Below, in pieces: positions 23,373 to 50,600 of a stretch of 50,600 nucleotides of DNA (position 1 is its first letter; each line of letters opens with the position of its first letter). The translations under genes were made by a program, and so were the position numbers. The notes below the pieces were generated by a model that was not told the DNA's origin, ran no database searches, and saw nothing but the letters and a program-made list of their open reading frames with translations. The stretch lies in NCBI GenBank assembly GCA_026395795.1, contig JAPLYB010000036.1, positions 1 to 50,600 of the forward strand, given 5' to 3'. The stretch is from Candidatus Pacearchaeota archaeon. Its GTDB lineage: Archaea; Nanobdellota; Nanobdellia; Pacearchaeales; UBA284.

Positions 23373-24093
23373 GTCAAGAACCACTGGTCACCGCTCGCCC
23401 TTGAAAATTGATTTGGGCTCGCTATAGACCAGTGGCATGATTAAATAATTGCTTAGAAGTTAATTGCTGGAGATTTCTGACAGCCAATATAATCGCTTAC
23501 ATGTTCTTCATCACTTCCAATGTTGTCGAGGAGATAAGCAGGATTCCAAAAACCACTTCCATAAAAATATTTTTTCTTGATTTCTGTAAATGCTCGCAAT
23601 ATTTTTCTGCCAGTTATTCCTCTCAAAATTTTAGCCGCTTCTGGTTTGCTTCTCAAACCAATGTCCACATTAAAATGTAAATGGTTTGAATCAAAACCAA
23701 CCTTTTTTATTGGCAGATGATAGTTCTCAGAAATTTCTTTGAACAAAACAGTAAGGAAGAACCTTACTTTTGCATCATCGAATATTTGATGACAATATTT
23801 AATTTTAAACATTGCGTGGCACCATGAATTTCCCACGCACGAACTTTTTCTATTTAATTGTCGAAACATTTTTTTCTCCAGAGCTCTCGCTAAGCGAAAG
23901 CAAATATTTATTTAGTTGAGAAAGCTCTAGCTAATACAATCGTTCTGTGAGCTAGAGTCAAGCTCACATTTCTTAATGCTTCTAGAAATAAATATCTTCT
24001 TAAAAAAAGAGGATTGATTTATCAAAATGAAATAAGTCCCTTGCTGGGCACTAAGAAGCACCACCAGTCCGAGACTGGTGGAAATCTCGCATT
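23373..24093 (-). mobile_element. IS200-type (tnpA-only) IS200/IS605-family element; left boundary approximate
   Basis: left-end hairpin CCACCAGTC/GACTGGTGG 24061-24081; right-end hairpin CCACTGGTC/GACCAGTGG 23381-23435 followed by TTCTTGAC on the minus strand; no tnpB. Confidence 0.75.
23453..23869 (-). CDS. tnpA: Y1 HUH transposase
   Basis: KYC...F, NHLHF (HUH), GFWNPAY, DYIGCQ (catalytic Y..Q). Confidence 0.9.
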   Translation of the reverse strand: MFRQLNRKSSCVGNSWCHAMFKIKYCHQIFDDAKVRFFLTVLFKEISENYHLPIKKVGFDSNHLHFNVDIGLRSKPEAAKILRGITGRKILRAFTEIKKKYFYGSGFWNPAYLLDNIGSDEEHVSDYIGCQKSPAINF

Positions 24094-24172: not shown

Positions 24173-24325
24173 TTACCAGTCTTCATCACCTAAATCATCA
24201 CTTGTTTCGTCTTCGTCATCCATATCGTCATCTGAATCCTCATCTTTATCAGATTTATCTTCCTCAACCTTATCGCTCTTATCTTTCTCTCCTAATTCCT
24301 TTTCCTCTTGTTTTTTTGTTTTCAT
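24173..24325 (-). CDS. 50-aa highly acidic microprotein
   Basis: manual translation MKTKKQEEKELGEKDKSDKVEEDKSDKDEDSDDDMDDEDETSDDLGDEDW; GGAGG SD; upstream TATA ~24418. Confidence 0.65.
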   Translation of the reverse strand: MKTKKQEEKELGEKDKSDKVEEDKSDKDEDSDDDMDDEDETSDDLGDEDW

Positions 24326-24378
24326 GCTAAAAAATCCTCCTAATTTTTGGCACGCTGAAAATAATTTATTTTCAAGCG
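24325..24378. repeat. 54-nt double-hairpin dispersed repeat carrying the SD of the acidic microprotein
   Basis: TGCTAAAAAAT-CCTCCT-AATTTTTGGCA and CGCTGAAAATAA/TTATTTTCA-A-GCG. Confidence 0.72.
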
Positions 24379-49485: not shown

Positions 49486-49589
49486 GGGCCCATAGTCCAG
49501 TGGTTAAGTTCTAAAGAATACTTTAGATTCCCATAAATGACGACTCCCTTACACGGAGTAGATCGCTGGTTCGATCCCAGCTGGGCCCA
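49486..49589 (+). tRNA. tRNA-Val(TAC) with 31-nt D-loop intron (49506-49536)
   Basis: GGGCCCA/TGGGCCC, ACTCC-CT-TAC-AC-GGAGT; removing the intron restores GTCCAGTGGTTATGAC; BHB helix GTGG/CCAT with 3-nt bulges. Confidence 0.9.
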
Positions 49590-49630
49590 TTTATTCTCAT
49601 AAAATTAAATTTTATCAAAAATTAAATTTC

Positions 49631-49730
49631 GCTGGGATCGAACCCTGGTTCTGCTCAGAAATGAGAACATTTCTGGCACGCCAAAAATTTCATAATTTTT
49701 GAGCGGATCCCAGCTGGGCCCATTTTTCTC
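49631..49730. repeat. inverted copy of the tRNA-Val T arm (49631-49644) plus direct copy of the tRNA-Val 3' end interrupted by a 54-nt insertion
   Basis: GCTGGGATCGAACC is the reverse complement of 49568-49581; CTGGTTC (49645-49651) + GATCCCAGCTGGGCCCATTT (from 49706) rebuilds the tRNA 3' end. Confidence 0.85.
49652..49705. mobile_element. 54-nt double-hairpin element inserted without target-site duplication
   Basis: TGCTCAGAAATG/CATTTCTGGCA + CGCCAAAAATT/AATTTTTGAGCG sits exactly between C and G of TTC^GA in a tRNA duplicate. Confidence 0.75.
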
Positions 49731-49770
49731 TTTTAAAAAGTTTTATATACTAATTTTTTTTCTAATAAGC

Positions 49771-50442: not shown

Positions 50443-50539
50443 AACCCAAAATATATCTTAAACAGTATCTCCGAATGAAGTTTAATACTATAAAGTTACT
50501 CCGAAAAGTTTAAATACTTAACCTATCTATTAGATAGGT

Positions 50540-50600
50540 ATGAAAAGAGTGAAGATTATAACAAAAACAACACTTATTCTGAAAGGAATAAGATGCTTTC
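50540..50600 (+). CDS. 5' start of a gene truncated by the window end
   Basis: TATA TTTAAATA ~50509, ATG 50540, frame open to the end. Confidence 0.4.
   Translation, partial: MKRVKIITKTTLILKGIRCF

Follow-up and report, generated by a model that had tools for sequence, protein, structure and literature searches.

Short mobile repeats of Haloquadratum walsbyi (SMR-A and SMR-B), reported in 2011 with a mobilisation called enigmatic, are by description the closest published kind of element to the repeat analysed here (PMC3119063, accessible text). Both are archaeal, gene-less and present in many copies, with inverted ends and no target duplication, and both insert into palindromes and IS605-type elements, the palindromes of IS605 and PATEs being strongly preferred by SMR-A (PMC3119063); among 80 loci of our repeat retrieved in a cross-taxon search, several adjoin IS605-like end hairpins and four lie in tnpB, with the copies of our main genome (G000) mostly elsewhere. 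The two differ in size, SMR-A being about 110 bp and SMR-B reaching down to 80 bp against 50-57 nt here, and tRNA targeting, a long duplication and an inverted copy of the target do not appear in the accessible text of PMC3119063. Elements of the IS200/IS605 family are described as making no flanking repeats, as relying on a guide that lies at the base of subterminal hairpins, and as recognising a conserved tetranucleotide in the target (PMC3333891 and PMC6006769, accessible sections). Our repeat shares with them and with PATEs the absence of a direct repeat at the junction, imperfect hairpins and a likely single-stranded substrate (PMC3333891, PMC6006769), and it is carried inside one tnpB lineage. 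Conversely, its hairpins close on the terminal bases, with two-fold symmetry and neither guide nor linker beyond them, the ends of the TnpA copies differ, and a long duplicate with an inverted copy is not reported for IS200/IS605 insertion in the sections at hand. The repeat therefore works partly like IS200/IS605 but is not a member. REP doublets (BIME/REPIN) with TnpA-REP/RAYT, as far as the same sections describe them, are also two inverted bulged hairpins at around a hundred loci, with nesting and tandem growth (PMC3333891, PMC6006769), whereas our repeat has no foot tetranucleotide (its flanks vary freely), no linker between units and no Y1 gene flanked by repeats; for Archaea, those sections of PMC6006769 show the IS200 subclass only. 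Mitochondrial GC clusters and double-hairpin elements, in the accessible part of PMC4478555, are likewise very small, palindromic and mobile, undergo merging and shuffling, and have an uncertain enzyme, but they are organellar, G+C-rich and make 2-3 nt target duplications. For the scar set out below, in which a duplicate and an inversion of the target accompany the insertion, our search of the published literature, which left most subscription papers outside, found no account.

The window, the 50,600-nt stretch of DNA analysed here, is contig C23 of a Candidatus Pacearchaeota genome (G000; 957 kb, 88% complete); G-, C- and L-numbers denote genomes, contigs and loci examined. It holds an intact tRNA-Val(TAC) gene at 49486..49589 on the plus strand (Rfam RF00005, 53.9 bits; ARAGORN missed or misnamed this tRNA, and Rfam settled its identity), with a 31-nt bulge-helix-bulge intron in the D-loop (49506-49536) whose central helix forms 4/4 pairs. 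An earlier note on this DNA had described a 54-nt element, running from TGCTCA to TGAGCG, that splits a duplicate of the tRNA-Val end, and both observations were borne out: deletion of 49652-49705 (54 nt) leaves a 27-nt exact copy of 49566-49592, that is, of the tRNA 3' end plus three flank bases, and each terminal base of the element closes a hairpin, so that it is part of the element. The left part of the split duplicate (49645..49651, plus strand) is an exact match to tRNA positions 50-56, and the right part (49706..49725, plus strand) carries positions 57-73 and the three flank bases. Between them, the two-hairpin repeat (49652..49705, no strand assigned; DNA fold -17.4 kcal/mol, z -7.1) consists of hairpin 1 (49652-49678, with a bulged T) and hairpin 2 (49679-49705, with a bulged A), the latter being the reverse complement of the hairpin-1 unit.

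Two features of the locus had been overlooked, namely an inverted copy of the T-arm and the likeness of the distal flank to that of another tRNA-Val gene. The inverted copy (49631..49644, minus strand; 14 nt, tRNA positions 52-65) is the exact reverse complement of 49568-49581, spans the insertion point without the element, and pairs back with 49645..49651 over a 4-nt loop. It is separated from the tRNA by a 41-nt spacer (49590..49630, plus strand), which aligns with both the spacer and the distal flank at the orthologous locus of the congener G004 and is, judging from this alignment, likely a copy of the tRNA's ancestral downstream flank. Beyond the duplicate, the distal flank (49726..49763, plus strand) resembles the flank of tRNA-Val(GAC) (G000:C5:749-810; BLAST 90%, E 1.4e-17), scoring 69 in alignment against the C5 flank and 29 against the proximal flank, and was likely acquired by later recombination between identical tRNA-Val 3' ends. 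The distance from the tRNA end to the distal fragment is 116 nt, and the fold obtained for 49625-49730 is a four-way junction (z -6.8), with two arms formed by the flanks and two by the hairpins of the element.

We propose, with a probability of roughly 0.6, that 49590-49725 is a scar: the repeat landed in a real tRNA gene, and copying repair rebuilt an intact tRNA ahead of it. The window locus is best read as such a target-copying insertion scar rather than as a plain peel-and-paste insertion. Misassembly at the duplicated tRNA-Val end, perhaps through erroneous joining to the tRNA-Val(GAC) locus, would fit the match of the distal flank to the C5 paralogue, and the exact tandem units at L193 and L228 could be assembly errors, but we consider it extremely improbable for the window: a single Logan contig spans 49563-49900 with no mismatch or gap (a second assembly rather than a second sample, as its run, X1, may be the source sample), the C5 locus lies on a separate contig, and the layout recurs across independent genomes. 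Contigs of four runs, an assembled form that drops rare variants, likewise contain no joint that skips the element. Tyrosine-integrase elements leave at their attL and attR sites an intact tRNA and, behind it, a displaced 3'-end copy, and the window locus shows the same restored tRNA and displaced 3' fragment; it differs in that the block has neither integrase nor cargo and contains an inverted T-arm copy, and in that such insertions are carried by at least eight tRNA isotypes at a variable cut point. Scars of this kind mislead the annotation of att sites and tRNAs.

The element at the locus belongs to a large family. A profile search finds 126 loci in G000, and a strict pattern finds 47 doublets of 50-57 nt (0 in the shuffled genome), each made up of a bulged hairpin and, after it, the same unit in reverse complement. 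Six types of terminal triplet occur among them, perfectly paired in 86 of 94 hairpins, so that the ends of the element are fixed independently of any empty site. Most copies in G000 are not at tRNAs, and copies nest within the stems of other copies. When circularised, the element folds as a dumbbell, a shape that any such doublet should take. Of the 401 genomes of the order, 20 contain the strict pattern, with none in the backwards control, and doublets are found in records named Woesearchaeota, Pacearchaeota, Nanoarchaeota, Aenigmarchaeota, Methanosarcinales, Methanobacterium and haloarchaea, with two further matches in bacterial bins among the matches listed. This cross-taxon search gave at least 117 stretches, of which the 80 retrieved may include some loci also examined under L-numbers. 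The named records sharing the repeat, together with the bulge-helix-bulge introns of the tRNAs, suggest a DPANN archaeon of the Woese-/Pacearchaeota kind as the source of the window. Viral contigs matched neither the doublet nor the empty tnpB junction (0 each), and Rfam holds no family for repeat or scar, recognising only tRNAs in 20 loci from outside G000.

A further full copy in the window (24325..24378, minus strand) lies flush, with a ribosome-binding-like motif on one side and a short ORF's start codon on the other, and has neither duplicate nor inverted copy. Its last hairpin carries a ribosome-binding-like motif, and A-ending doublets flush at start codons, where they recreate ATG, are also seen at G000:C38:41591, C38:36712 and L002, only 2 of these start-codon doublets satisfying the strict criteria.

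The layout of the window locus, in which a tRNA is followed by copied flank, inverted T-arm and split duplicate, is found at 7 of the 42 tRNA loci of G000 (Val, Ala, Ile, Pro, Ser and two Lys) under a criterion of at least 8 nt antisense to the locus's own tRNA and a 3'-end copy of at least 11 nt; a cross-pairing control was positive in 2 of 1722 cases, both same-isotype paralogues. An eighth block, on C27, lies behind a bare Lys 3' fragment. All seven tRNA-end duplicates contain a doublet, intact or worn, and the presence of 7 of the 126 loci within about 190 nt of duplicates has P ~1e-15, or 2e-9 when non-coding DNA only is counted. Seven relatives in three families (G001, G003, G005, G010, G017, G019 and G038) share the layout. 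An inverted copy or duplicate, in some cases weak, was flagged at 8/26 T-arms in G001, 5/29 in G017 and 8/30 in G038, counts that refer to fetched regions covering most but not all tRNAs and including pattern-picked loci. The copies track their own tRNA, to the extent that a T-loop variant at L074 is present in all three copies. Tandem arrays with a different doublet in each unit occur at L061, L063 and L074, and many scar copies are worn or truncated. Same-isotype events may be partly inherited, so that events are fewer than loci. A pattern search across the order returned 30 loci, most of them chance matches or tRNA-Glu introns, which were discarded on inspection.

Parsing of 16 tRNA events gives a consistent picture of the junctions. 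With the element ends set by the pattern, 14 are flush; the other two reflect an extra terminal base pair in one case and a substitution in the copy in the other. The view that insertion leaves no target duplication therefore stands for the junction, where no short duplication is found, but not for the event as a whole, in which 30-60 nt of target are duplicated. In 14 of the 16, the exact inverted match extends across the cut, one exception being L088, where it stops short. Cuts fall after position 56 (n=6), 57 (n=4) and 61 (n=4; in the stem), with 59|60 as a further position (L193, L194), and the acceptor stem contains none of the 14 flush events, a clustering at 56-61 that rescue of the tRNA does not explain by itself. 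L073 has a plain duplicate without an inverted copy, and at L003, L070 and L091 the split copy and the tRNA beside it are not identical, a discrepancy that needs later change or transfer between paralogues.

Since the inverted copy spans the cut and the layout recurs, the duplicate was likely made by the insertion rather than being a bystander target, as the earlier note had taken it to be. A bystander role could be kept if the scar arose in two steps, a fold-back duplicate of the tRNA end forming first, as an att remnant or template-switch mutation, and a flush insertion into the resulting hairpin following, with stems favoured. Nesting of repeat copies in the stems of other copies fits such a preference, as does the palindrome targeting described for the published short mobile repeats (PMC3119063, accessible text), and plain tRNA-end duplicates without the repeat exist at L038 and L071. 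However, a search of 61 genomes for an inverted copy next to an intact T-loop, covering canonical T-loops with loops of up to 22 nt, found no element-free fold-back precursor beside a tRNA: the pattern matched 6 places in 5 genomes, as many as in its backwards control, 4 of them being scars cut at 61|62 and then followed by a doublet and 2 lacking a doublet and any tie to an intact tRNA. Moreover, 7/7 duplicates in G000 are filled, the inverted copy spans the cut in most events despite varying cut positions, and L194, discussed below, is a direct hit on a whole tRNA, so that we consider the two-step origin unlikely.

Scars are not confined to T-arms. Split direct repeats flank the repeat at 8 G000 loci, compared with 0, 0, 0 and 1 in four shifted controls, and the cut sites elsewhere include a D-arm, a terminator-like tract, start codons and a tnpB gene. 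A mirror-image scar lies at the 5' end of a tRNA-Pro (C43:20432-20487), with opposite polarity and upstream DNA, although its inverted copy falls short of spanning the cut, and another lies in a T-rich, terminator-like tract behind a gene on C24 (C24:7772-7821). The proposal that the repeat targets the T-loop, or looped DNA generally, thus survives in part: structured targets are common, but a T-loop-only rule fails with cuts in the stem and outside T-arms. Nor did other clean insertions yield a target motif, as exact junctions follow differing tetramers and a conserved 4-5 nt word is absent, leaving only an A|T bias (16/47 and 53/80) that stems partly from the search pattern. Together with the failure to find subterminal hairpins or a cognate TnpA, this lack of a fixed target word speaks against the suggested HUH/Y1 peel-and-paste transposition of the IS200/IS605 kind, whereas movement of the repeat as a unit with defined ends is upheld by recurrent flush junctions and by the haloarchaeal filled and empty sites described below. 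An IS91-like target word fits just the 56|57 class and was rejected.

We suggest a route to these scars that seems to lie beyond any known transposon family. The repeat would leave its donor as a single-stranded circle, folding into a closed dumbbell with the bulges on one strand. A trans-acting enzyme, most likely a single-strand nicking-joining HUH protein or similar, would then open the bulged strand and join it into one target strand, which would leave no short duplication and would set the filled strand against its empty partner in a four-way junction. Synthesis on the empty allele could pass the cut by 25-60 nt, fold back on a match of 1-3 nt and copy across the cut again, before its product is linked to the filled strand a few bases ahead of the element. 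This third step rests on the relatives, because G000 spacers share just 0-3 exact bases with their distal flanks; in L063, L069 and L137, 13-19 nt of the distal flank reappear in the spacer, against 0-4 nt in the remaining events, and the L068 spacer terminates in a 3-nt match to the T-stem. The end state, of intact gene, copied flank, inverted copy and split copy, is the layout that we observe. Such scars would be expected to persist mainly at the ends of needed genes, with deletion between direct repeats elsewhere returning a plain flush copy, and the later fates seen among our loci are decay, nesting of further copies and tandem expansion. Folded single-strand substrates in integron and CTX-phage recombination, as well as template-switch mutations, resemble the proposed mechanism. 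Neither a circle, an empty allele nor a half-finished product was seen in the assembled contigs. By preserving the filled strand alongside a copy of the empty one, the scars resemble frozen intermediates, and a search for the enzyme can start from the exact ends, the cut sites and the defined substrate, dumbbell plus T-arm, that they supply.

The same products might be written through RNA, with a reverse transcriptase copying the end of the tRNA precursor, jumping to a repeat RNA and folding back before the cDNA recombines into the locus. The genomes carry up to three reverse transcriptases, and the enzyme is found in 7/9 genomes with at least 5 doublets against 164/392 others (Fisher P 0.04), but kin are not independent, and the corresponding test for any doublet (12/20 against 159/381) gives P 0.16. 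At L064 (G001:C11), a tRNA-Pro with two introns has one of 39 nt in the T-loop at 59/60 that is missing from the downstream duplicate and inverted copy, as an RNA intermediate would predict, although the intron may postdate the scar. The scars at the tRNA-Pro 5' end and in the terminator-like tract point to a process at the level of DNA, and we regard the RNA route as quite improbable. Reverse transcriptase domains occur in 171 of the 401 genomes of the order.

For the scar route preferred here, the mobilising enzyme was sought in several ways. Y1 TnpA is present in 2/7 repeat-rich and 4/24 other genomes, the drafts being incomplete. The window itself carries a tnpA of IS200/IS605 type (23453-23869, minus strand; NCBIfam), but the end hairpins of the three G000 tnpA loci differ from those of the repeat, the C43 locus showing two loose matches to the unit pattern that are not doublets. 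Nine ORFs in G000 are flanked by the repeat on both sides, and none is a Y1 locus. Tyrosine recombinases occur in 4/5 genomes, including the repeat-free G002, with none in the repeat-rich G038, and single out no mobiliser; GIY-YIG domains occur in 0/5. A motif scan combined with two-sided neighbours over 1033 G000 ORFs again singled out none, and Pfam revealed no recurring nuclease in 74 of the 127 ORFs neighbouring 80 of the 117 listed loci. The mobiliser may well be another nicking-joining enzyme, described or not, and could plausibly be an HUH-like enzyme acting in trans; a reverse transcriptase is a doubtful candidate. The window tnpA and the tnpA loci on C3, on C43 and in G004 have in common a conserved leader, about 150 nt long and rich in hairpins, and carry a different double-hairpin insert in the hairpins of their right ends.

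One copy is placed like a tRNA intron. At L194:1501-1552, a doublet occupies 59|60 of a lone full-length tRNA-Gly, and 3 kb of sequence contain no further copy of the 3' end; in both L193 and L194 the 59|60 site can form 4/4 central-helix pairs, with wobble pairs, in a relaxed bulge-helix-bulge. From this placement, the L194 doublet could be a newborn tRNA intron, and if spliced it would offer a concrete route of origin for non-canonical tRNA introns in DPANN archaea. At L165 and L198, doublets lie within T-loop introns. The doublets in whole tRNA-Gly and in T-loop introns indicate that real tRNA genes are hit; such genes survive by duplication or, possibly, by splicing. The element of the window locus was considered as a spliced bulge-helix-bulge intron and rejected, its central helix forming only 1/4 pairs, as it does at four other G000 sites, compared with 4/4 for two true introns. 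tRNA introns of the genus hold other recurrent hairpin motifs (G000:C12:49373-49495, C2:481-603, C37:13781-13928; L070, L072), which occur outside tRNAs as well, a distribution that suggests further repeat families sheltered in introns.

These pairing counts also bear on whether the block is a functional RNA module, in which the trailer's antisense T-arm and the split copy would serve as a folding switch, a processing signal or a spliceable half. The number of isotypes involved, copies that follow each tRNA's sequence, and hairpin feet that are compensated across the six triplet types would fit such a role. The poor central helices at five G000 sites do not, and the block is patchy among congeners, with no strict doublet in G002 and differing Val loci; many copies are worn or truncated, and most lie away from tRNAs. 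We therefore hold a functional module to be very unlikely and retain the scar as the better account.

The most direct view of a filled and an empty site comes from haloarchaea, where a doublet lies in frame near the 3' end of tnpB (NCBIfam guided_TnpB, E 1.4e-48). One genome contains a filled tnpB copy (L276) together with two empty ones (L281, L284), which differ by 54 nt, flush and with no scar; this pair is the cleanest support for the flush-junction claim. Among 251 haloarchaeal genomes, 8 yield 9 matches, with one or two copies each and no high-copy genome, a further difference from the short mobile repeats, and all of these lie at one tnpB site, so that the repeat there is a passenger. 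Within this tnpB lineage (L173, L159, L178, L182, L289-L297), the pair beside the bulge appears in several compensated forms. The haloarchaeal filled and empty pair and the one copy placed like a tRNA intron are what is new here. More tentatively, and with a likelihood well short of even, the 54-nt DNA dumbbells could represent a pan-archaeal family moved by an undescribed single-strand exchange that writes direct and inverted target copies, spares essential genes, spreads between phyla inside IS200/IS605 and seeds tRNA introns at 59|60.

Comparison with a congener suggests that the window event is an old one. At the orthologous locus of G004, the spacer and inverted copy are shared with the window, and the place of the element is taken by about 550 nt of other sequence that includes an open frame. 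Because spacer and inverted copy are common to G004, the event seems to predate the G000/G004 split; the locus, which had been presented as direct evidence of mobility, is therefore a record of mobility, but of a past and seemingly old event rather than a current one. In G004, the tRNA-Val(TAC) locus (L071, G004:C3:83000-84200, extending to L002) contains about 9 kb of additional sequence ahead of the conserved downstream gene and is an integration hotspot. At L004 (G005:C30), the tRNA-Val(TAC) lies in reversed orientation with respect to its conserved neighbours and has an intron in the variable region. Finally, positions 50456-50600 of the window are nearly identical to sequence downstream of the C13 tRNA-Leu and of a C41 tRNA, a repeated element that lies at contig breaks.
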